Below, piece by piece: positions 3-64,000 of a stretch of DNA of 64,000 nt. The stretch is from positions 68,671 to 132,670 of the forward strand of contig CAYXYK010000003.1 of NCBI GenBank assembly GCA_964469335.1, given 5' to 3'. The number at the start of each line of letters is the position of its first letter. The first letter of the stretch is position 1. The position numbers and the translations under genes are program-made. The DNA comes from an uncultured Candidatus Saccharibacteria bacterium (lineage in GTDB: Bacteria; Patescibacteriota; Minisyncoccia; Phycocordibacterales; UBA6899). The notes beneath the pieces are model-generated. The model saw only the letters and a program-made list of their open reading frames with translations. It was not told where the DNA came from and made no database searches.

Positions 3-896
3 CTCGAAGTCGGAGATATCGCAGTCGCGACGCTTGTCGTCATGGTCCTCACGGCAGGTCTTATCTATTTCGTGAACATCCGCAACTGGGATGCGAACCT
101 CAGCCTGATCAACGCGATACGTCCGGACGGTGTGCTTGTCGACGACGGACACGGCAACAAGAAGATCGCGCTCGAAGAAGTGGTCAATCGCGGGCTATTT
201 GGAACTGGAGAAGCACGTGAGCAACTTGCACAGTTCGCAGTCCAGACACTCGACCCTCGTATCCCTGAATCACTCCGCAAGCAGTTCTTTGAGCTGACCG
301 CTGCTCAATTCGACCAGGAACTCAAAGACGATCCAGAGAACGTCCGTACGCAATCTTTCACCGCAACATTCTATGCCCGCTTCGGTCAGTATGATAAGGC
401 GCTTGAGCATTTCCAAGCAGCGATCAAGCTCTCGCCGAACCGCCAGTCGAACTATCTCGACCTTGGGATGATGTACATCTCAATGGGGCGATATGCAGAC
501 GCAGAGGCGGTCATCAAGAAAGCATATGATCTTGAGCCGGCGAATAATGATGCCGGGGTCGCATACGCAACGGCACTCATCTACAACAAGAAACCGGAGC
601 TTGCGCAGCCAGTCCTTGCTACGCTCGGGCAGTCGGCGTTCGACAGTCGCATCGTGAACGCCCTCGGGAACGCAGGGTACTTCGAGCAGGTGATCGCACT
701 TGTGAACGAGAAGATCGCTCAAGGGCTCGCGACCGGCCGTGATTACTTCTCGCTCGCGGGAGGCTATGCCTCAATCGGGCAGACGGCGAAAGCACTCGAA
801 GCAGTCGACAAGGCTGTATCAGTCGATGCCTCACTCAAGGACCAAGGTGAGCAACTGAAGACCCAGATCAGTGCTGGTCGTCCTGTAACGAAATAA
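3..896 (+). CDS. TPR-repeat protein, 5' partial (reading frame is open to the window start)
   Basis: Tetratricopeptide-like repeats (KALEHFQAAIKLSPNRQSNYLDLGMMYISMGRYADAEAVIKKAYDLEP); no stop codon upstream in frame to position 3. Confidence 0.6.
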   Translation, partial: LEVGDIAVATLVVMVLTAGLIYFVNIRNWDANLSLINAIRPDGVLVDDGHGNKKIALEEVVNRGLFGTGEAREQLAQFAVQTLDPRIPESLRKQFFELTAAQFDQELKDDPENVRTQSFTATFYARFGQYDKALEHFQAAIKLSPNRQSNYLDLGMMYISMGRYADAEAVIKKAYDLEPANNDAGVAYATALIYNKKPELAQPVLATLGQSAFDSRIVNALGNAGYFEQVIALVNEKIAQGLATGRDYFSLAGGYASIGQTAKALEAVDKAVSVDASLKDQGEQLKTQISAGRPVTK

Positions 897-2242: not shown

Positions 2243-2311
2243 ATGGCAGCAAAGAAGAAGGCAAAGAAAGCAGCAAAGAAGACTGCAGCAAAGAAGAAGA
2301 AGAAGGCATAA
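2243..2311 (+). CDS. 22-aa lysine/alanine-rich micro-protein (MAAKKKAKKAAKKTAAKKKKKA), hypothetical
   Basis: ATG..TAA read directly from the sequence; followed 10 nt later by a perfect 22-bp hairpin; no clear SD. Confidence 0.3.
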   Translation: MAAKKKAKKAAKKTAAKKKKKA

Positions 2312-2321
2312 GCCACATTTC

Positions 2322-2369
2322 TTCCACAAAGAAAAATTCCTGCGTAAGCAGGAATTTTTCTTTGTGGAA
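2322..2369 (+). terminator. Perfect 22-bp palindromic hairpin (A-tract/T-tract arms; bidirectional-terminator-like)
   Basis: ttccacaaagaaaaattcctgc gtaa gcaggaatttttctttgtggaa. Confidence 0.55.
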
Positions 2370-2597
2370 GAATAAAACAAGCGAACTTCTTCGTTGCGGG
2401 GCCCCAGCGACTCAGTCACCGTACTCCGAGTACGCCTCCTTCGCCGCAATCCCCGCGCCTTGAATTTCATCTTGTTTTATTCTTCCTGAATGCCCAGAAA
2501 ATTAACAAGACAAAGGTGTTCGACATGGGGGTTCGGCTACGTTATAGTAGGTGGACTTCAGGCCGTTTGCGCTTAGTTGACAGCTCTGGAAAACATC

Positions 2598-5093
2598 ATG
2601 AAATTACTGAACAAACTATTCAAAACAGAAGGAGAAAAAGAAGTGCAGCGACTTTGGCCGATCGTGGAGAAGATAAACGGATATGAAGCGGAGATCAAGA
2701 CACTTTCAGACGAAGCACTCACGGAGAAGACACACGAGTTTAAAAAAAGATTAGCAGAAGGAGAGACGCTCGATGATATTCTTCCCGAAGCATTCGCAGT
2801 TGTACGTGAAGGATCACTCCGCACGCTTGGGCAGCGTCACTACGATGTGCAGCTCCTTGGCGGCATCATCCTACACAAGGGAATGATTGCCGAGATGAAG
2901 ACCGGTGAGGGAAAGACGCTTGTCGCAACACTGCCGACCTACCTCAACGCACTGAGCGGTAAGGGCGTACATATTGTCACCGTCAACGACTACCTTTCTT
3001 CCCGCGATGCAGTGTCGATGGGACAGATCCATGCATTCCTCGGACTCACTGTCGGAGTGATCAATCATGACTCATCCTATCTCTATGATAAGACCCAGGT
3101 CGCTAGCGATGAGTCGCGTGATGAGACCGGTTCATTCCGCGTCTTCCACGAGTTCCTTCGTCCGTCAACAAGAAGAGAAGCATATGCAGCGGACATCACC
3201 TACGGAACGAATAACGAATTCGGGTTCGACTATCTGCGCGATAATATCTCATATGAAGCGAAAGATCTGCGGCAGAGAGAGTTCAACTTCGCTATCGTCG
3301 ACGAGATCGATTCCATCCTCATCGACGAAGCACGAACCCCACTCATCATCTCTGCTCCAGCACAGGATTCCGAGTCACTTTATGCTACATTCGCAGCTAT
3401 CGCGACGAAACTCTCTGCACCGGGGGATTTCACCGTCGACGAGAAGCTCAAGGCAGTCCAGATCACCGATGAGGGGATCACTAAAGCCGAACAACTTCTT
3501 GGTGTCGAGAATATCTATACAGAAAAAGGCATCAAATATGTCCATCATCTGGAAACCGCGGTACGTGCAAAGGCTCTTTTCCTCAAAGATAGAGAATATG
3601 TGATCAAGGGAGACGAGGTCATCATCGTCGACGAATTCACCGGGCGATTGCAGCCCGGCCGTCGTTGGTCAGAAGGGCTCCATCAGGCGATCGAGGCAAA
3701 AGAAGGGGTGAAAGTGCAGCAGGAGTCTCGTACCATGGCGTCGATCACTTTCCAGAACTACTTCAAACTGTACGGCAAGCTCTCCGGTATGACAGGTACA
3801 GCGCTCACTTCGAGCGAGGAATTCCTCAAGATCTATGGGCTCGACGTGATTCCGGTCCCCCCAAATCGTCCGTCTGTCCGTATCGACAACAATGACCTGA
3901 TCTTTCAGACCGAACAAGGGAAGTTCAAGGCGATCGCACGCAAGGTGAAGGAACTCCACGATAAAGGCCAACCGGTACTCATCGGTACCGTCTCGGTCGA
4001 GAAGAATGAACTTCTGTCCGCTTTTCTCACTCACGAAGGGGTACCTCATGAGCTTTTGAATGCAAAGAATCACGAACGGGAAGGTGAGATCATCGCACAA
4101 GCAGGTCGTGATGCATCGGTCGTCATCGCCACCAACATGGCGGGCCGTGGCGTCGACATCAAGCTCGGCGGTAATCCTGGAAGTCCTGAAGCATATACGA
4201 CAGTGAAGGAGCACGGCGGGCTTTTCGTCTTGGGTACCGAACGCCACGAAGCTCGTCGTATCGATAACCAGCTGCGCGGTCGCTCAGGACGCCAAGGTGA
4301 TCCCGGCGAGACACAGTTCTTCGTCTCACTCGAGGATTCGCTGATGCGTATCTTCGCATCTGACACCATCAAGAGCATGATGGGTCGTTTCGGTATCCCC
4401 GAGGATGAACCGATCGAGAACCGTATGATCACTCGAGCCTTGGAGAACGCACAGGAGAAGATAGAAGGATTCAATTTCGACGCCCGCAAGCACGTACTCC
4501 AGTACGACAACATCATCAATCTTCATCGTAAGACGATGTATGAGCGTCGCCGAAAACTCTTGCTCGGCACGAAGGAAGAAGTAAAAGGATATTTCGACAA
4601 TCTCATCGCCGAGGCAGGTGAGTTTGGTGAGGAGATTGAGAAGGCAAAGAACGAGAAGATCGCGATCATCGGCGAGGATTCTTTCTATGATGTGGTTCGC
4701 CGACTGGCATTACAGACAAATGACATGTTCTGGATCGACCACCTCGAGCTGATGGATTACGCTCGATCATCGGTCAATCTGCGCGCATACGGACAGCGTG
4801 ACCCTCTAGTTGAGTACAAGCATGAAGGACTTAGGCTTTACAAAGAGATGGAGGAGGGGATCAGACATCAGATACTTGAAATGATTCCACGTATCGAAGT
4901 TGGAGCATTCGTACAGCGCGAAGCAGAACTCAAGAAAGTCGAAGCACAGATGACACTCGCGGGAGGGGCGAATACCGGAGACGCAACCACTTCGCAAGCG
5001 AAAAAGACTGACGAGCATGCAATCGGGCGAAACGACCCCTGCTGGTGCGGTAGCGGGAAGAAATTCAAGAAGTGCCACGGTGCTGAAGCATAA
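2598..5093 (+). CDS. secA: Preprotein translocase ATPase SecA
   Basis: KTGEGKTLVATLPTYLNAL Walker A/DEAD motor; C-terminal zinc finger CWCGSGKKFKKCHG; start chosen at MKLLNKLF (the ORF also has an in-frame ATG at 2577). Confidence 0.93.
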   Translation: MKLLNKLFKTEGEKEVQRLWPIVEKINGYEAEIKTLSDEALTEKTHEFKKRLAEGETLDDILPEAFAVVREGSLRTLGQRHYDVQLLGGIILHKGMIAEMKTGEGKTLVATLPTYLNALSGKGVHIVTVNDYLSSRDAVSMGQIHAFLGLTVGVINHDSSYLYDKTQVASDESRDETGSFRVFHEFLRPSTRREAYAADITYGTNNEFGFDYLRDNISYEAKDLRQREFNFAIVDEIDSILIDEARTPLIISAPAQDSESLYATFAAIATKLSAPGDFTVDEKLKAVQITDEGITKAEQLLGVENIYTEKGIKYVHHLETAVRAKALFLKDREYVIKGDEVIIVDEFTGRLQPGRRWSEGLHQAIEAKEGVKVQQESRTMASITFQNYFKLYGKLSGMTGTALTSSEEFLKIYGLDVIPVPPNRPSVRIDNNDLIFQTEQGKFKAIARKVKELHDKGQPVLIGTVSVEKNELLSAFLTHEGVPHELLNAKNHEREGEIIAQAGRDASVVIATNMAGRGVDIKLGGNPGSPEAYTTVKEHGGLFVLGTERHEARRIDNQLRGRSGRQGDPGETQFFVSLEDSLMRIFASDTIKSMMGRFGIPEDEPIENRMITRALENAQEKIEGFNFDARKHVLQYDNIINLHRKTMYERRRKLLLGTKEEVKGYFDNLIAEAGEFGEEIEKAKNEKIAIIGEDSFYDVVRRLALQTNDMFWIDHLELMDYARSSVNLRAYGQRDPLVEYKHEGLRLYKEMEEGIRHQILEMIPRIEVGAFVQREAELKKVEAQMTLAGGANTGDATTSQAKKTDEHAIGRNDPCWCGSGKKFKKCHGAEA

Positions 5094-5747: not shown

Positions 5748-6995
5748 ATGTCTAAAAAAGGAAGTCCGCTTTTCACGCTTTTCTTCACCATATTCCTCGA
5801 TATGGTCGGAGTGGGTATCCTCATCCCGGTCATGCCAGTCCTTCTCACTGAGCCGAGTTCCTCACACTTCATCCTCCCCGCAGGAACATCGGTCGAAACG
5901 GGGTACCTTCTGCTCGGACTCCTGTTCACGCTTTTCTCACTCGGACAGTTCCTTGCGGCACCCATCATCGGACAGTTTTCAGATAAGTGGGGAAGAAAGA
6001 AACTCCTTGCGCTCTCGGTATTCGGGACTTCGCTCGGTTTCTTCATGTTCGGTGTGGGAGTCATCTTGGGTAATGTCCCGCTACTGTTCTTCGCTCGGTT
6101 CTTTGCTGGAGTGATGGGAGGGAACATCGTCGTTGCACAAGCCGCCATCGCGGATATCACTACACCCGAGAACCGCGCAAAGAATTTCGGGATGATCGGC
6201 GCGGCGTTCGGACTTGGATTCATTCTTGGACCGTTCATCGGAGGTAAACTCACCGATACGACGCTCGTATCGTGGTTCTCTGCATCCACGCCATTCTTCT
6301 TTGCCGCGGCACTTTCGTTCATCAACGTCATTCAGGTCTTGTACTATCTCACTGAGACGAATCTTCATACGGCGAAGGACAAGAAAGTCGAATGGGGTAA
6401 ATCGTTGTCGAACATCCTCCATGCGCTCAAGATGCCGCGGGTGCGACCGCTGTTCATCACCAACTTCCTCTTCCAAGGTGGTTTTTCGTTCTATATCACG
6501 TTCATGGCGGTCTATCTTTTGGCGAAATTCAATTTCACTCAAGGTGAACTCGGTAACTATTTCGCGTTCGTTGGGATATGGATCGTCATTACTCAGGGGT
6601 TCATCACCAGGAAGGTCGCCCAATATGTAAATGAGACGAAAGTCGTGCAGAACTCGATCATCGCCGTCGGGCTTTGTATCCTCGCGATCGTCATGGTCCC
6701 GTCAAGGAGCCTTCTCTATATGGTAGTCCCGTTCTTTGCGATCGCGGTCGGGCTTTCACAGGCGAACATCACCGCGCTGATCTCACGCTCAGCGGGTGCC
6801 GGTGTGCAAGGGGAAGTCCTCGGAATAAACGGAAGCGTAATGGCACTCGCGCAGGCGATCCCTCCGATCCTTTCAGGAGTGGTAGCCGGACTCTTCGAAC
6901 CGGAAGCGTCACTTCTCATTGCGGCAGCACTCGCTGTCATTGCTGGGCTATATTTCAATAATCATCTCCGTAACCTCAAACTTGCTCACTCATAG
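5748..6995 (+). CDS. MFS transporter (drug:H+ antiporter / tetracycline-efflux-like)
   Basis: 12-TM profile; MFS signature GQFSDKWGRKK between TM2 and TM3. Confidence 0.82.
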   Translation: MSKKGSPLFTLFFTIFLDMVGVGILIPVMPVLLTEPSSSHFILPAGTSVETGYLLLGLLFTLFSLGQFLAAPIIGQFSDKWGRKKLLALSVFGTSLGFFMFGVGVILGNVPLLFFARFFAGVMGGNIVVAQAAIADITTPENRAKNFGMIGAAFGLGFILGPFIGGKLTDTTLVSWFSASTPFFFAAALSFINVIQVLYYLTETNLHTAKDKKVEWGKSLSNILHALKMPRVRPLFITNFLFQGGFSFYITFMAVYLLAKFNFTQGELGNYFAFVGIWIVITQGFITRKVAQYVNETKVVQNSIIAVGLCILAIVMVPSRSLLYMVVPFFAIAVGLSQANITALISRSAGAGVQGEVLGINGSVMALAQAIPPILSGVVAGLFEPEASLLIAAALAVIAGLYFNNHLRNLKLAHS

Positions 6996-9435: not shown

Positions 9436-9436
9436 T

Positions 9437-9560
9437 GTGGTTTTCAATTCCGGCGAATTTCATCGTTGCCTGCGTCGTGAGTCGGCTCAACGTACGATGA
9501 GTACGTCTCGCCGGCATTACTTCATTTGCGCCTCGAACTTCATTAAGAATTGAAAACCAT
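9437..9560 (+). other. Nested long inverted-repeat structure in the intergenic region (candidate structured RNA or complex terminator)
   Basis: Outer arms gtggttttcaattc(9437-9450) / gaattgaaaaccat(9547-9560); inner ccggcga / tcgccgg; innermost cgtac-gatga-gtacg. Confidence 0.4.
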
Positions 9561-9578
9561 AAAAGAAAATTAATACTC

Positions 9579-18483: not shown

Positions 18484-19071
18484 TTGCCATATATGGCAAC
18501 CAAAAAAACCACGACAAAAAAGAAGGTAGCAAAGAAGACTACCAAGAAAGTTACGAAGAAAGCAGTGAAGAAGACCGCTCCTAAAAAAGCTGTGGCTAAG
18601 GTCATATCCCTGAAAGTGGGAGAGATTGCACCGGACTTCACCATGGCGTCGACCGATGGAGGAAATGTGAAACTCTCCACACTCCGTGGCAAACGCGTGG
18701 TCCTGTATTTCTACCCGAAAGATATGACGAGCGGCTGCACCATCGAGGCGCACGAGTTCTCCGCTGTTGCGAAGGAATTCGCCAAGAAGGGGACTCTCGT
18801 GTTCGGTGTAAGCCCGGACGACATCGAAAGTCATCATAAGTTCATCAAGAAGGATGCTCTCACTTTTCCGCTTCTTGCCGACATTGGACATACGGTCGCG
18901 GAGAAATACGGCATCTGGGTTGAGAAGAGTATGTATGGGAAGAGATATATGGGCATCGAGCGCTCAACATTCGTTGTTGGAAAGGATGGAAAACTCGAGC
19001 AGGTATATCGCAAGGTTTCACCTGAGGGCCACGCGGTATGTGTTCTTGAAGATATAGCACAGAGTAAGTAA
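18484..19071 (+). CDS. bcp: Peroxiredoxin Bcp (thiol peroxidase) with a Lys-rich N-terminal extension
   Basis: RVVLYFYPKDMTSGCTIEAHEF peroxidatic Cys motif; N-terminal about 40 aa is KK-rich (TKKTTTKKKVAKKTTKKVTKKAVKKTAPKKAVAKV). Confidence 0.85.
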   Translation: MPYMATKKTTTKKKVAKKTTKKVTKKAVKKTAPKKAVAKVISLKVGEIAPDFTMASTDGGNVKLSTLRGKRVVLYFYPKDMTSGCTIEAHEFSAVAKEFAKKGTLVFGVSPDDIESHHKFIKKDALTFPLLADIGHTVAEKYGIWVEKSMYGKRYMGIERSTFVVGKDGKLEQVYRKVSPEGHAVCVLEDIAQSK

Positions 19072-19163
19072 ATTTTGTACTCTGCTCGTCTTTCCCTCGA
19101 CAAGTCTGGTCACCATAGATGACTATGGCTCCCAGACATTATCTCAGTCCACGACTTCGTATT
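19070..19163 (+). repeat. Structured intergenic repeat, copy A (partner at 56930-57025)
   Basis: aattttg..ctcgtctttccctc..[gtctgg tcac catag atga ctatgg ctc ccagac]..ctcagtccacgacttcgtatt; shares its flanks and hairpin architecture with copy B. Confidence 0.6.
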
Positions 19164-19209
19164 TCATATAACTATGAAGGTCTGATGCAAGAAGTCATTT
19201 TGAAAAACC

Positions 19210-38566: not shown

Positions 38567-38572
38567 GCATAT

Positions 38573-38601
38573 AAAAACACTCCGCAATGCGGAGTGTTTT
38601 T
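38573..38601 (+). terminator. Bidirectional terminator between dgkA and the pfkB gene
   Basis: aaaaacactccgc aat gcggagtgttttt. Confidence 0.75.
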
Positions 38602-38614
38602 ATGAGAGAGAACA

Positions 38615-43079: not shown

Positions 43080-43089
43080 TCTGTCAGTC

Positions 43090-43131
43090 GCCATAAGAAA
43101 AATCACCCTGATGGGTGATTTTTCTTATGGC
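43090..43131 (+). terminator. Perfect 19-bp palindromic bidirectional terminator
   Basis: gccataagaaaaatcaccc tgat gggtgatttttcttatggc. Confidence 0.75.
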
Positions 43132-43185
43132 GGGGGGAAATCGCCTTTGGATGTCATATATATGCGGTATAATTGTTCTCATAGC

Positions 43186-44574
43186 ATGGGTACACTTACT
43201 TCGAAGAGCGCATGGCTTCGGCCAGCTACGATTTTCCTCACGTTCACAGTCCTTTTTTCCATAGGAGGGACGGTTTTGGCGCAAACGGCGTCGAGCACAC
43301 CGCCAGCTGCGCCAGTCGACAAGGAAGCGCTGCTCCAGCAGCAGCTCGATGATATCAACCTTGAGATCAAAGGACTCAATAACACCATCGGTGGGCTACA
43401 AGGACAAGGAAAGACACTCAATGGTGATATCAAGCTCCTCAACGCGAATATCGAAAAGGCAACACTCAATATTAAGGCGAAGAATCTGCAGATCTCACAG
43501 CTCTCTCAGGGGATCACTGAGAAATCACGTACCGTCCGTACGCTCTCACAGAAACTCGAGGCGGAGCGACAGTCGCTGGCACAGCTGATACGGAAGACCA
43601 ATGAGCTCGACCAGGCGTCACTTACCGAGATGCTCTTTTCGAACGAAGATCTCTCGAGTTTCTTCCTCGATCTCGATTCATTCGACGCACTACGTGCCGG
43701 ACTCAAGAATTCCTCTGATGCGCTCAAGAGTGCAAAATCAGAGACTGAGGCCGCTCAAGCTGCGCTCGAGGAGAAACAACAAAAAGAGATGGATGCAAAA
43801 GCAGAACTCCAACGCAATAAGCAGCTGGTGGAGTCCAATCAGGCCGAGAAGAAACGGCTCCTGTCGATCACAACGAACAAAGAACGGGAATATCAGAAGG
43901 TGCTTGCGGACCGAAAGAAGAAAGCCGCGGAGATCCGCGCTGCACTGTTCGCGCTTCGTGATTCGGGCGAGATCAATTTCGGAAAAGCGCTCGATTATGC
44001 GAATCTCGTCTCTGCGAAGACCGGCATCCGCCCGGCATTCCTCCTTGCCGTGTTCATGCAGGAATCGAGCTTCGGAAAGAATCAGGGTTCATGCTATCTC
44101 AAAGACAAATCGACCGGCTCAGGTATCGGTGTACGCTCCGGAAGCACGATCGCAAAAGTGATGAATCCTTCTCGTGATGTTCCACCATTCCTGAAGATCA
44201 CCGCTGCGCTCGGGAAGGATCCATACAACACGTTGGTGTCATGTCCTCAGGAAGTGGGGTGGGGAGGTGCGATGGGAGCAGCACAGTTCATTCCTTCAAC
44301 ATGGGAAATGATCTCGGGGCGTATCACGTCGGCGCTTGGCACCGATGCGGCAGACCCGTGGAGTGCCCGCGATGCGTTCATGGCGGCAGGGATTTATCTC
44401 ACTGATATCGGAGCGGTGTCCGGTAGCTATAGTGCGGAGCGCGACGCAGCATGTCGCTATTTCTCAGGCAGTAAATGCAGCAAGTCGAGCTGGGCGAGAA
44501 CGTATGGGGATCAGGTGATGGCGAAGGCTGCGAACATCCAGACCACCATGATCGACCCACTACAGAATACGTAA
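43186..44574 (+). CDS. Secreted coiled-coil protein with C-terminal lytic-transglycosylase-like (SLT/lysozyme-like) domain
   Basis: Signal peptide; long coiled coil; LLAVFMQESSFGKN (catalytic Glu-Ser) and GAMGAAQFIPSTW motifs; TATAAT (43169-43174) upstream; start at MGTLTSK. Confidence 0.62.
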   Translation: MGTLTSKSAWLRPATIFLTFTVLFSIGGTVLAQTASSTPPAAPVDKEALLQQQLDDINLEIKGLNNTIGGLQGQGKTLNGDIKLLNANIEKATLNIKAKNLQISQLSQGITEKSRTVRTLSQKLEAERQSLAQLIRKTNELDQASLTEMLFSNEDLSSFFLDLDSFDALRAGLKNSSDALKSAKSETEAAQAALEEKQQKEMDAKAELQRNKQLVESNQAEKKRLLSITTNKEREYQKVLADRKKKAAEIRAALFALRDSGEINFGKALDYANLVSAKTGIRPAFLLAVFMQESSFGKNQGSCYLKDKSTGSGIGVRSGSTIAKVMNPSRDVPPFLKITAALGKDPYNTLVSCPQEVGWGGAMGAAQFIPSTWEMISGRITSALGTDAADPWSARDAFMAAGIYLTDIGAVSGSYSAERDAACRYFSGSKCSKSSWARTYGDQVMAKAANIQTTMIDPLQNT

Positions 44575-44722
44575 TTTGAGCGCATCGCTCGGTTTTCCCT
44601 CGGCGGGTTTGGAGGCAGTACTATCAGTACAGCTTCGCAAACACCGCCTCAGTCCAAACCTTCGCACTGCATCTCAAATAACGTATTCTGGAATTTCAAT
44701 TTTGCAAAAATATTTTTGGTAA

Positions 44723-47018: not shown

Positions 47019-47024
47019 CGACCG

Positions 47025-47063
47025 CAACAAAAAACCGCTGGCAATGCCGCGCGGTTTTTTGTT
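47025..47063 (+). terminator. Bidirectional terminator
   Basis: caacaaaaaacc ... ggttttttgttg arms enclosing a GC-rich inner stem. Confidence 0.6.
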
Positions 47064-47200
47064 GCTAGACTTCTAGAACTCGCGCCCTGCTTGATCTTCC
47101 TTCGGCCAGCTCGACAATGTATAAGCATACATCCTACGAGTATGCCCTCAGAACAGATCTGCGCATTGCATCGAATTCTGTAAGTCTTCATAATACCTGT

Positions 47201-48287: not shown

Positions 48288-48983
48288 ATGACTGAAAACA
48301 ATACCGTAATCGATGCAATGTTCAATGTCGGCGCTCACTTCGGGTATTCCCGAGCTCGCCGTCATGCCTCTGTGCGCTCACACCTGTTCGGTGCAAAGAA
48401 CGGGGTGGATATTATTAATCTTGAAGAGACCGCAAAGATGCTCGCCGCAGCAGAGGAGCGCATTCGCGAACTCGGAAAGCTCGGGAAGCCCGTCGTCTTC
48501 GTCGGCACCAAGATGGAGGTTCGCCCTCTCGTCGAGGCAGCAGCGAAGTCACTCAATCAGCCCTACGTCACAGAGCGTTGGGTCGGCGGCATGCTCACCA
48601 ACTGGCCGGAGATCAAGAAGCGCACCGCGCGTCTCAAGGAACTCTCGGACAAGTTCTCAAAGGGTGAGCTCGAGAAGTACACCAAGAAGGAACGCCTTTT
48701 GTTCGAGCGTGAAATGGCAAAGCTCCAGACCGAGTTCGGAGGTATCGCCGCTCTTGAAGGAACTCCCGCAGCACTCGTCATCGTCGACCCTCGCGAAGAG
48801 CACATCGCTGTGCTCGAGGCGATCAAGATGAAGGTGGAGATCATTGCGCTTCTCAACACCGACTGCAACAAGAACGAGATCACATATCCGATCCTTGCGA
48901 ATGATTCGGCACTCGAGAGTGTGAAGTATTTCCTCGCACAGCTTGGTGCAGCATTCACTCAGGGCGTGAAGTCTCGCGCATAA
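48288..48983 (+). CDS. rpsB: 30S ribosomal protein S2
   Basis: S2 signature (VGAHFGY, VVFVGTK, ERWVGGMLTNW). Confidence 0.95.
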   Translation: MTENNTVIDAMFNVGAHFGYSRARRHASVRSHLFGAKNGVDIINLEETAKMLAAAEERIRELGKLGKPVVFVGTKMEVRPLVEAAAKSLNQPYVTERWVGGMLTNWPEIKKRTARLKELSDKFSKGELEKYTKKERLLFEREMAKLQTEFGGIAALEGTPAALVIVDPREEHIAVLEAIKMKVEIIALLNTDCNKNEITYPILANDSALESVKYFLAQLGAAFTQGVKSRA

Positions 48984-49147
48984 ACTTGCCTGTTCGGCTA
49001 CCTCCTTCGTTGCCAGCGTCATGAATCTCCTCAACGTACTCGAAGTACGTCTCGGAGATATCATTCCTCGGCGCCTCGGATATCATCCGAACAACCAAGT
49101 TTAAAGATTCAAAATGGAATTCTTTGTAAGTTAATTGAAACAACAAT

Positions 49148-50205: not shown

Positions 50206-50350
50206 GGTAGTGGGCTTGGTCAGGAGTCACTAAGTCTTTTGCGGACAAAAGCCTAAGTGCTCACGACCTTAGCTCGTCCGTTTCATCAGAATGAAACAGG
50301 ACTGCGCTTTTCAAGCCCGACCGCAAGGCAAGCAGTTGCCTTGCTCTTCC

Positions 50351-50391
50351 GGCTCCAAAGAAAAAATCCCCACGAGGGGATTTTTTCTTTG
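50351..50391 (-). terminator. Palindromic terminator immediately 3' of tRNA-Thr
   Basis: ccaaagaaaaaatcccc acga ggggattttttctttgg; overlaps the encoded CCA end. Confidence 0.6.
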
Positions 50392-50464
50392 GAGCCGGAA
50401 GTCGGGCTTGAACCGACGACCTACGGTTTACAAAACCGTTGCTCTACCAACTGAGCTATTCCGG
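50389..50464 (-). tRNA. tRNA-Thr (anticodon UGU), CCA encoded
   Basis: Minus strand reads GCCGGAAUAGCUCAGUUGGUAGAGCAACGGUUUUGUAAACCGUAGGUCGUCGGUUCAAGCCCGACUUCCGGCUCCA; cloverleaf checked by hand (7-bp acceptor, D and T arms, anticodon loop UUUGUAA). Confidence 0.9.
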
Positions 50465-50839
50465 CTTATCTCGACTGCAAAAACTTCTCGTTTCAGCAAT
50501 TCAAAGATAATACGTTATTTATGTCATAAAGCAAGGAATTGATTTGTGTAACAAGGAAGAACACATATAATTCACTTATTGTGAAAGAAAATAATGCAAA
50601 GAGTGTAGCGACATGTAAAGAGTGCAAATACATCTTTCTCGGGGCATTTGCGGTACTCATCGGATTCTTTGTCGTCACATTCCTTTTGCGAGATGAAAGT
50701 GTAACGAGTTCGCTCTCCGGGAATACGACAATCACCGTTCCGGCAGCGACTTCCAGTCCTTGAATTCCCAACATTTTTTCAAATAATGCAAGTCGTTCTG
50801 ATGCGTGCCTTTGGAGCGATATTCCCATATAATGGCAGA

Positions 50840-54816: not shown

Positions 54817-56925
<2,109 letters not shown>

Positions 56926-56929
56926 TTGA

Positions 56930-57025
56930 AATTTTGGCGCATTACTCGTCTTTCCCTCAGGAATTCCAGTCACCGTAGAATAACTACGGCTCCTGGAAAT
57001 TCCCTCAGTCCAAGACTTCTGTATT
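56930..57025 (+). repeat. Structured intergenic repeat, copy B (partner at 19070-19163)
   Basis: aattttg..ctcgtctttccctc..[ttccag tcac cgtag aataa ctacgg ctc ctggaa]..ctcagtccaagacttctgtatt. Confidence 0.6.
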
Positions 57026-57117
57026 GGATTCAAAAAATACGTAAATATACAAAGTGTTCAATCCAGCACTTTGTATGACACTCAAAATTCGATGTCCAAT
57101 CGACTTCTCATGCATAT

Positions 57118-57153
57118 AAAAAGAAAAACGGAGCCAATGTTGACTCCGTTTCA
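57118..57153 (-). terminator. Intrinsic terminator (minus strand)
   Basis: On the minus strand: AAACGGAGTCAACATTGGCTCCGTTTTTCTTTTT. Confidence 0.7.
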
Positions 57154-57690
57154 ATTCATGCGCCCACGTTCGGGGAAGTGCTGTTTCATCAGCGTCTGGA
57201 AGAAGTCGCGCAGCGTTTCCGCCTGGATCAGGTTGCGGTTCAACTCTGCATTCACGCTCGGATGGAACAGTGGGTGTGCGAGGTCCAACGTGAATTCTTC
57301 ATCGGACAGGGCGCGCTTGTCAGCGACGTTCTTCTCGAGATGTGCAAGGTAGTCCACGAGCAGTTCGCGAGTAGACACCAGGTAGGGGAAGCGAACTTTC
57401 GCTTTCATGAGTGGTTCGCCACTTTGGATGAACGCTTCTAGCGCGTCCTGGTAGCGAGCCGGGGGGATCGAGCGTTCGTCAAAGAACACTTTGGGAAGTC
57501 TCGGGTTCTTTCGTCCGGCGCTCGTCCTCCAGTCCAAGATGAAGAAGATGATGTCCATCAGTTCGCTGCTGTCACTTTGGCTGTAAACGACCTCGACGTC
57601 GCCTACGGCGCAGAGCCGTGTGATTGCCGCTCCTGTCTCTGTCGAGTGTGGGATGCCTTTCGTTGTGGGAAGAACACTTATTTCGAGCAT
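57151..57690 (-). CDS. Hypothetical protein
   Basis: 179-aa ORF with its own terminator; no recognisable family. Confidence 0.4.
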   Translation of the reverse strand: MLEISVLPTTKGIPHSTETGAAITRLCAVGDVEVVYSQSDSSELMDIIFFILDWRTSAGRKNPRLPKVFFDERSIPPARYQDALEAFIQSGEPLMKAKVRFPYLVSTRELLVDYLAHLEKNVADKRALSDEEFTLDLAHPLFHPSVNAELNRNLIQAETLRDFFQTLMKQHFPERGRMN

Positions 57691-62905: not shown

Positions 62906-64000
62906 TTAACGTTGTTTTCTTTTTTTCTTGTAGTCCTTGCGGTACGGTTCCGACACGCGTTCGAATTCCTTGCACAAGGCGAAGGTCTTCGCATCGGTGC
63001 GGGTAGGAGCGATCACTTGTTTGTAATAGTGAAGAAACTCTGCGATGATGCCGCGGATCACCTCGGGCGAATCGTTCCACAGCTCCTTGGTAAGGTAGCT
63101 TTGGATGATGCCATGGATGCGGCGACGTTTCTTCTGCGGGAAGACCAATACCGCTTGTCTCGCTTCGCTGCGTTCATCCGAGTCCTCACGCATTCCGACC
63201 TTGGTCACGAACACCGTTCCCATGTGACGAGAGCGAACCGTGCTCTTTCGGTGATTTACTGCGAATCCGGCATCAGCGATGAACTGGCGTATCTCTTGGC
63301 GCATGAAGAACGGGATCGGGATGCCGCGCGAGAATACCAGATCGTCGACATAGCGGGTGTATGTCACGGTGCGCTCGGGTGCCTTGCGGTCGAGCTTCTT
63401 GAAGAAGAACGTGCGTAGGCGCGAGTCGAGGAACACTTCACAGTACAGGTTCAGCAGCATCGGGGAGAGCGGCCCTCCGACCGCGAGTCCTTTGCCGTGC
63501 ATCCCGCCGAATGCGAATGCGACGAAACTTTGCATGCGTGGGAAAAGCGGGTCAGAGCGGAGCGCGAAGTGCGCAAGCTCATTGCGGGCAAACTGGTCTA
63601 CGGAATAGAAGACGCCGTACTCCTCATGGCGGAAGATGAAGGTGAGGAGGAGCGACAGCCGTTCAAGATCGACGGAAGGATACGCATGAGCGAAGTCGGT
63701 GGTGTAGAAGAATTCACCTTGCGTATGCTTCTCCGAGTTCTTCATCGGGTTCGACTTCTTCACACAGCCGGTCGCGGAGGGGAGGATGCGCAGCCACTTG
63801 CCGTCGTCTCCCATCGCTTCGAGCTGGTGACGCAGGAACGTTTCGAACAAGTGATGCAGTTTGCGCATCGCACCATTCGGGTGTCCTATCAATCTGCGCT
63901 TGCCGCGCAGTTTGTTGGGGGGCTTCACTCCCTTTTTCTCTTTCGGGTCACCCCATCTGAAATTGAAATCAGGCACACCGCTCACTTCCGAGAGCAGTGT
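62906..64000 (-). CDS. Reverse transcriptase, retron-type/standalone bacterial RT (N-terminus runs off the window)
   Basis: RT motif A (YTTDFAHAYPSVD), motif B' (GLAVGGPLSPMLLNLY), motif C (YTRYVDDLVFS); a retron-like NxxKS...FVTKVG region follows YVDD; the frame is open to the window edge. Confidence 0.78.
   Translation of the reverse strand, partial: TLLSEVSGVPDFNFRWGDPKEKKGVKPPNKLRGKRRLIGHPNGAMRKLHHLFETFLRHQLEAMGDDGKWLRILPSATGCVKKSNPMKNSEKHTQGEFFYTTDFAHAYPSVDLERLSLLLTFIFRHEEYGVFYSVDQFARNELAHFALRSDPLFPRMQSFVAFAFGGMHGKGLAVGGPLSPMLLNLYCEVFLDSRLRTFFFKKLDRKAPERTVTYTRYVDDLVFSRGIPIPFFMRQEIRQFIADAGFAVNHRKSTVRSRHMGTVFVTKVGMREDSDERSEARQAVLVFPQKKRRRIHGIIQSYLTKELWNDSPEVIRGIIAEFLHYYKQVIAPTRTDAKTFALCKEFERVSEPYRKDYKKKRKQR

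Follow-up and report, generated by a model that had tools for sequence, protein, structure and literature searches.

The DNA directly after the gyrB stop codon in the window (the whole 64-kb stretch analysed here) folds into a stable hairpin, which raises the question of whether this hairpin serves gyrB itself or is one copy of a dispersed element. An earlier note, made from the letters alone, had described a structured repeat that lies immediately after the gyrB stop, has a partner at 19070-19163 in the same orientation, and is not specific to one gene. Our analysis agrees on each of these points. The core of the repeat begins at 56935, shortly past the gyrB TAA at 56923-56925; the copies at 56935-57030 (copy B) and 19075-19168 (copy A) share 82% column identity, both on the + strand shortly past a stop codon; other copies follow an SLT-domain gene, rpsB, the L31 gene, a DUF2339 gene, and a tiny lysine-rich ORF; and the structure is upheld by covariance-model matches in all copies, as well as by compensatory pairs. 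The earlier count of two copies, however, had to be raised to seven, all of them in one orientation within the window.

Two covariance models describe the repeat, namely R1, built from copies A, B, and C, and R2, rebuilt from 13 sequences. R1 recovers copies at E = 1e-30, which far exceeds chance, and a search of the window with the filters off returned exactly seven copies (54-94 bits), the next-best match scoring 16 bits. Copy C (44578-44673), directly 3' of the SLT-domain gene, had first surfaced in a short-pattern search. All seven window copies are intergenic and they comprise three subfamilies; five of them start at, or a few nucleotides from, a stop codon, and further copies reside in related genomes. 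The ~95-nt hairpin repeat is previously uncatalogued. In Rfam 15, only tRNA reached the gathering score across the whole window, and searching copies A and B at E up to 10 returned only chance matches to miRNA, snoRNA, and lncRNA families; a full-text literature search found nothing on such repeats in CPR bacteria. Near the left end of the window, a tiny lysine/alanine-rich ORF at 2245-2311 (+) (MAAKKKAKKAAKKTAAKKKKKA) is followed by a 25-bp perfect terminator palindrome and then by copy F.

Table. Coordinates of gyrB, of the seven repeat copies, and of associated features in the window (minus-strand elements are given in forward-strand positions).
Feature	Position	Strand	Remarks
gyrB	54841..56925	+	Stop TAA 56923-56925, adjoined by copy B; Pfam DNA_gyraseB, Toprim, HATPase_c
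Copy B core (P0-P3)	56935..57030	-	Best-folding strand; R1 106 bits, E 1e-30; R2 91 bits
P0			5' GAUGmAaUdC segment with a less conserved 3' partner
GARG/CGAG loop			Between P0 and P1
P1, 5 bp (copy B)	57012..57016 with 56948-56952	-	5' strand GUCUU pairs with AAGAC; covaries, GUC/GAC (A, B) versus GGU/ACC (C)
Internal loop, 5' side (copy B)	57005..57011	-	GGACUGA; same letters in A, B, and C
Internal loop, 3' side (copy B)	56953..56958	-	GAGGGA; same letters in A, B, and C; loop of 7 x 6 nt
P2-P3 region (copy B)	56959..57004	-	10 of 18 pairs compensatory among A, B, and C
P2, ~11 bp (copy B)	56999 (bulge)		Conserved bulged U
Tandem GA/GA (copy B)	56991-56992 and 56970-56971		
P3, 7 bp (copy B)	56984-56990 with 56972-56978; loop 56979-56983		Often CGUAC...GUACG; closing pair a conserved G.U
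ATATTTA	56918..56924		Spans the gyrB stop; complementary to TAAATAT at 57042-57048
Small local hairpin TACAAAGTG...CACTTTGTA	57048..57075		In strain-specific DNA that replaces the right arm; outside the repeat family
Intrinsic terminator of convergent gene 57151..57690	57125..57152	-	
Copy A core	19075..19168	-	After AhpC/TSA (bcp-like) peroxiredoxin gene 18484..19071 (+), stop 19071
Copy C	44563..44690 (core 44578-44673)	-	After SLT-domain gene
Copy C outer arms	44563-44580 and 44673-44690		18 nt, 94% complementary; left arm includes the last codons and TAA of the SLT-domain gene
Copy D	47067..47187 (core 47080-47172)	-	After L31 and bidirectional terminator 47024-47065; 30 nt before prfA start
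Copy E	9436..9566 (core 9459-9544)	-	Second subfamily; begins right past the DUF2339 gene stop
Copy D and E outer arms			Resemble those of other copies
Copy F	2366..2486 (core 2379-2471)	-	Third subfamily; beside 25-bp perfect terminator palindrome 2319-2372
Copy F outer arms			16 bp, perfect
Copy G	48981..49103 (core 49003-49087)	-	Second subfamily; after rpsB
Copy G outer arms			17 nt, 88% complementary; begin with rpsB TAA
26-bp perfect palindrome	50346-50401		Takes in the 3' end of tRNA 50393-50465; the opposite arm carries a perfect inverted copy

The core, when read in the minus-strand direction, forms an imperfect hairpin of ~95 nt, in which P0 is followed by a loop, P1, an internal loop, P2, a tandem GA/GA, and P3. 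In the alignment of copies A, B, and C, 12 of the 23 pairs are changed on both sides, and 97% of the cells are paired, versus 27-44% when the partners are slid by 1-3 columns; the internal loops of these three copies are identical, whereas their stems are very different. In a set of 20 distinct sequences, taken from the window and from related genomes, 19 of the 23 pairs show compensatory changes and 90% of the cells are paired, as compared with 65% in shuffles and 30-39% after sliding, and the observed covariation score was reached by none of 500 shuffles. Conservation is highest in the GATG-containing 5' end, at the bulged U, and at the apex of P3, and only one end of the element is strongly conserved; the P3-closing pair is a G.U in 15 of the 20 distinct sequences. 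A comparison of copies B and D between two strains of 98.4% identity gives 10 differing positions; G/A exchanges on the minus strand account for seven of them, and no difference disrupts a P1-P3 pair.

Several known RNA motifs were compared with this fold by eye and set aside: (i) the hammerhead, since CUGAnGA/GAAA is out of register and only two stems are present; (ii) the hairpin ribozyme, with which AGAAGUC alone is in common; (iii) group II domain 5, for which GAGCCGUA...UACGGU is found in copies A and B only, with neither the bulge nor a GNRA loop; (iv) the K-turn, as the GA/GA loop is symmetric and lacks a 3-nt bulge; and (v) SECIS, which would lie on the wrong strand. A 7-codon mini-ORF on the minus strand (M-Q/K-Y/C-E-...-stop) was also rejected, having no Shine-Dalgarno sequence and no conservation in the second and third subfamilies.

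The earlier note had read copy B on the plus strand, but the conserved structure folds better on the opposite one (hereafter, the model strand). Copy B reaches -38.5 kcal/mol (z -5.4) on the minus strand versus -29.8 kcal/mol on the plus strand, and in 12 of 13 copies the model strand is the more stable one, the difference reaching as much as 14 kcal/mol. The consensus energies of the model and opposite strands are -21.0 versus -14.8 kcal/mol for 18 sequences and -34.5 versus -26.0 kcal/mol for the seven window copies, although the + strand still folds at -21 to -40 kcal/mol. Moreover, the unpaired bases on the model strand are 67-82% purine, which opposes the local skew, where G and A are favoured on the + strand. 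The relative numbers of G.U and A.C cells are uninformative as to strand when taken alone, apart from one conserved G.U; outside that pair they are equal (12 versus 13), and the asymmetry therefore resides in the conserved loops and in that pair, not in the stems generally.

The orientation relative to genes is nearly uniform: 9 of 10 independent positions have the model strand antisense to the gene that they abut. These include a weak yet still recognisable copy after dnaE (L082/L083), a gene on the other strand; only the copy in the rpsB 5' region of a related genome (L087:3245) is in sense orientation. The window consists of housekeeping DNA, in which almost all genes lie on the + strand and the GC skew is positive in 13 of 15 intervals; the + strand is probably the leading strand.

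The window GyrB is 80-83% identical to proteins named Candidatus Lloydbacteria (Parcubacteria, CPR), and the host is, judging from this likeness, a Lloydbacteria-like CPR bacterium; metagenome contigs of a 98.4%-identical sister strain (L091) were also found, whereas exact-sequence look-ups of the window's GyrB and GatB returned no record. Orthologous copies persist across species with ~80-83% GyrB or SecA identity. They are present after the SLT-domain gene in the window, L087/L088, and L089, with a common P2 sequence (GGCGGUGU...ACCCGC); after rpsB in the window, L087, L089, and L084; after L31 in the window and L087; and upstream of secA in the window, L094, and L095. At the gyrB site, a copy is present in the window species and in L084-L086 (one of the copies in the latter is in decay), and the site is empty in L082, L087, L089, and L090; the DUF2339 site is filled in the window only, and no copies were found in L090 or L097/L098. 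The earlier note had asked whether close relatives lack the element, and the answer differs by site: the gyrB site is filled at 90% GyrB identity but empty at 93%, 83%, 82%, and 81%, whereas other sites are conserved. In the SLT-site orthologues of L087 and L089, the internal loops are replaced by paired bases.

Two local arrangements in these relatives deserve mention. In L087/L088, rpsB is bracketed by inverted copies of different subfamilies, at 3245-3331 (+) and 4086-4171 (-), of which the upstream, sense-oriented copy is separated from the rpsB start by 35 nt and closely follows a promoter-like TTGCGA-17-TAGTAT; in L089, direct tandem copies at 156-250 and 284-374 (-) follow the SLT-domain gene. 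Further afield, we scanned genome, metagenome, and viral collections for the exact pattern TGGACTGAG-N-GAGGGAAA(NNNCGAG), and the matches were singletons without a hairpin and a Nocardia palindrome, amounting to 5-6 independent events where, by our own estimate, ~7 are expected by chance. The Nocardia element (L001-L026, from Nocardia crassostreae NBRC 100342 and Nocardia sp. NPDC127526) is a multi-copy, GC-rich palindrome of ~120 nt with the loop words UGGACUGAG / GAGGGAAA-NNN-CGAG, as in copies A-C. Kinship with it was rejected: R1 finds no match at the Nocardia loci, the loop words are not kept even in sister Lloydbacteria, and the resemblance is probably a coincidence.

The core is usually nested in a palindrome of ~130 nt, the outer 13-20 bp of which are locus-specific and often perfect. 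Such outer stems are found in at least six of the seven window copies, and some of them take in the stop codon, which lies inside the outer stem in copies C and G and in L084, L087, and L091. The flanks of copy A do not pair with each other across the core; each folds into a small local hairpin of its own. After gyrB, the outer stem of the L084 copy (90% GyrB identity) is 20 bp long, perfect, and contains the stop codon; in copy B of the sister strain L091, P0 is intact and the gyrB TAA is enclosed by an outer stem of 16-18 bp. Copy B of the window is a slightly eroded family member, in which the right arm is lost and replaced by unrelated, strain-specific DNA; the ATATTTA that spans its gyrB stop falls on a stretch of the left arm of the outer stem, which L091 still has complete.

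The two strains align up to 57035, and the break in the alignment there falls exactly on the right edge of copy B. Between 57035 and 57118 (L091 12194-12645), the window has 82 nt of unrelated DNA with a small hairpin, and L091 has at the break a partial second repeat copy and an extra 108-aa ORF, which has no family match and is not followed by a repeat copy. This small hairpin had been pointed out earlier and does exist, but at 57048-57075, not at 57035-57062, where it had been placed; the terminator of the downstream minus-strand gene, likewise pointed out, was found at 57125-57152.

Comparison with the empty gyrB sites of L082 and L090 suggests that the left arm is the ordinary 3' flank of gyrB and that the right arm is an inverted copy thereof. 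Between filled and empty gyrB sites there is no direct target-site duplication, but instead this inverted copy of the left flank. Other hairpins of the window, among them terminators and a tRNA end, have similar arms in the form of perfect inverted copies, and terminator palindromes with 25 and 20 perfect base pairs occur as well. Template switching at quasi-palindromes is a DNA-level process that both creates and perfects stems (PMC8794818, PMC7202029), and the outer arms probably arise by this process. In all, unusually long perfect palindromes with 15-26 bp arms and A-run/T-run flanks lie at 50346-50401, 2319-2372, 43089-43132, 38571-38603, and 47024-47065, and resemble bidirectional terminators.

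As the best explanation, to which we give a probability of roughly 40%, we propose a lineage-specific, REP/REPIN-like family of strand-specific repeats that is recognised as a folded single strand. A REP/REPIN kind of element fits best because of the copy number, the intergenic sites, the tag, the compensating middle, the strand asymmetry, and the persistence with turnover. Like REPs and REPINs (PMC2817692), the repeats are dispersed extragenic palindromes of high copy number that form hairpins in ssDNA or RNA; they combine a conserved tag beside the hairpin, here a 5' GATG, with a variable middle in which changes are compensatory, as is also described for REPIN spacers (PMC3116915); they persist vertically at orthologous sites with occasional gain, loss, and clusters, often near stop codons; and one related genome has a RAYT-like gene. 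Tandem and partial copies, the strain-level rearrangement exactly at the edge of the element, and the filled and empty sites after gyrB and DUF2339 beside long persistence at SLT, rpsB, L31, and secA all point the same way, as does a strand asymmetry that runs against the local base skew in 12 of 13 copies. The outer arms, being often perfect Watson-Crick copies of gene ends, are what template switching predicts.

The repeat is nevertheless outside any described REP family, because its unit, tag, and doublet architecture differ and its cognate enzyme is only a candidate. REP hairpins are accompanied by a GTAG/CGTC tag (PMC3733652), in contrast to the GATG of the repeat, only one end of which is strongly conserved. 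The unit is one ~95-nt hairpin rather than an inverted doublet of 20-40-nt REPs, the host is a CPR bacterium, and no RAYT was found beside any copy or in the window. The nearly uniform orientation relative to the abutting gene (9 of 10 positions) is, to our knowledge, not a described REPIN property. Identical loops in copies A, B, and C, together with divergent stems, are also unlike a recent burst from a master copy, and there is no direct target-site duplication. IS200/IS605 elements have a known strand bias, and the more stable strand of the repeat, on what is probably the leading-strand template, is opposite to it.

A REPIN's cognate RAYT (Y1_Tnp) gene is single-copy and usually has the repeats on its flanks; the search for such an enzyme gave one candidate. 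Among 40 of the larger ORFs of the window, there is no Y1/HUH gene and no other transposase or integrase. By contrast, GCA_043719805.1 (L095), which carries repeats, encodes at 6098-6769 a solitary 223-aa Y1_Tnp protein with an HUH-like NHWH motif, whose best NCBIfam match is 'REP-associated tyrosine transposase' (NF047646) at 67.6 bits, below the cut-off of 80. Its gene has a giant RHS-like gene on one side and DUF5671-murB-secA on the other, no repeats flank it, and all other loci compared lack it.

If the family is indeed REPIN-like, its identity would lie in the asymmetric features, namely the 5' GATG, the bulged U, the tandem GA, the G.U(T), and the purine-rich loops, with the stems varying while pairing is kept. 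The folded single strand would be recognised by a trans-acting protein, for which a Y1/HUH (RAYT-like) enzyme, like those that maintain or move REPINs, is the best candidate. Once a copy had settled, template switching may lengthen and perfect the base of its hairpin by copying the gene end, stop codon included, into the other arm, and copies would last at sites that tolerate them, where transcription units end. If gyrB is affected at all, for instance through a stable 3' stem-loop in its read-through RNA, this would be a secondary consequence.

Two alternatives instead assign the repeat to RNA, and neither is fully exclusive of a REPIN-like origin, because resident repeats often acquire RNA-level effects. 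According to the former, which we consider unlikely, a structured RNA is made from the strand antisense to the abutting gene, through read-through of a convergent neighbour or divergent transcription at the next promoter; it would act as a small RNA, or as a hairpin with purine-rich loops that is bound or cut by a protein (e.g., RNase III, the gene for which is present in the clade), blocking head-on transcription. The better fold of the model strand and its antisense position, the dnaE copy included, are consistent with this, and a conserved G.U, a tandem GA, and unpaired bases that are mostly purine are typical of functional RNA; moreover, copies D and F are followed on the model strand by bidirectional intrinsic terminators. 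However, upstream of the core the model strand shows no conserved promoter motif at any fixed distance, promoter-like matches occur at chance frequency, and a terminator on this strand is lacking in copies A, B, C, and E. The balance of G.U and A.C cells outside the conserved pair, the sense-oriented copy of L087, the loops turned into pairs in the L087 and L089 orthologues, and several loop substitutions between two related strains also argue against it. The latter alternative, a 3'-UTR stem-loop of the sense transcript that shields gyrB mRNA from 3' exonucleases, serves as a processing site, or couples to translation termination, is about as unlikely. Liang, Rudd and Deutscher reportedly found in 2015 that E. 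coli REPs within 15 nt of stop codons couple to translation termination, and the proximity of five of the seven copies to stop codons, the fixed orientation relative to the upstream gene, the outer stems that hold the stop codon, and a + strand that still folds would suit such a role; the gyrB, AhpC/TSA, SLT, and DUF2339 genes, furthermore, have no other terminator-like structure of their own. On the other hand, the sense strand folds more weakly, with pyrimidine loops and a conserved A.C mismatch opposite the G.U, and a plain stabiliser needs no conserved asymmetric loops. Copies D and F, in addition, come after canonical bidirectional terminators; they would for the most part be missing from the upstream mRNA, and they are not needed to end the upstream transcript. 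This also bears on the earlier treatment of the element as part of the gyrB transcript, with a question about termination, which was not supported. A stable hairpin directly past the stop codon is what an intrinsic (Rho-independent) terminator of gyrB would offer, but neither strand has a U-tract after the hairpin, and on both the core is followed by an A-run; a terminator scan did not call copy B terminator-like, even though the organism uses canonical, often bidirectional, terminators nearby. We regard such a terminator as scarcely credible.

Other hairpin-bearing elements were compared as well. Integron attC sites share with the repeat a structure that is conserved over sequence, a best fold opposite to the strand of the upstream gene, extrahelical bases, an unpaired central loop, and a position directly 3' of an ORF, and the 108-aa ORF that is present or absent beside copy B between strains would suit a single-strand recombination site marking mobile gene cassettes. 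Such a site is very improbable, however: copies A, B, and C have no R/L core sites (RYYYAAC/GTTRRRY), no integrase was found among 40 of the larger ORFs of the window, there is no cassette array, the upstream genes are syntenic housekeeping genes, and the variable ORF lacks a copy after it. ERIC/IRU sequences are 127-bp imperfect palindromes of enterobacteria that lie between genes in transcribed regions, by ORFs, and are kept at orthologous sites. The repeat resembles them in its size, its long imperfect hairpin, its intergenic position by ORFs, and its retention at orthologous sites, but no sequence relationship is apparent in an informal comparison, the phylum is another one, and its outer arms are locus-specific, with no TA duplication. 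The Correia/NEMIS MITEs of Neisseria are short non-coding elements with inverted ends that form hairpins when transcribed and are targets of RNase III; the repeat is likewise short, non-coding, and hairpin-forming but, unlike MITEs, it has neither a direct target-site duplication nor IS-like terminal repeats, and its copies are old, with diverged stems, and not recent insertions of almost the same sequence. It is a minority possibility, finally, that the family constitutes a new class of strand-specific CPR element, either an antisense RNA module that guards gene 3' ends against head-on transcription or a GATG-tagged ssDNA substrate of an HUH enzyme whose orientation is set by the neighbouring gene.

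Whichever function the repeat may have, an element of ~130 bp occurs at about one copy per 9 kb in the window, and this density in a tiny, tightly packed CPR genome, together with retention at orthologous sites, makes pure junk unlikely. Should the REPIN-like reading be true, long-lived partnerships of repeat and enzyme would extend to an uncultured radiation; should the antisense RNA be real, it would represent a new way of insulating genes. On the practical side, hairpins of this kind, and the perfect palindromes of template-switch type around them, can cause terminators, small ORFs, and stop codons to be misannotated in CPR genomes.

A reverse transcriptase gene also lies near the right end of the window. 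It encodes a 385-aa protein (62906-64000 (-); L091 18421-20010) with weak retron-type matches below curated cut-offs, and upstream of it is a non-coding region of ~520 nt with 11-nt inverted repeats, AGCCGGGAAGC / GCUUCCCGGCU, that lie ~320 nt apart, like the a1/a2 of retrons. The repeat as a retron msr-msd was considered and rejected, as this reverse transcriptase is ~6 kb away and has its own a1/a2 repeats, and the covariance model finds nothing there. The reverse transcriptase region is 93% identical between the two strains, compared with 98% elsewhere.
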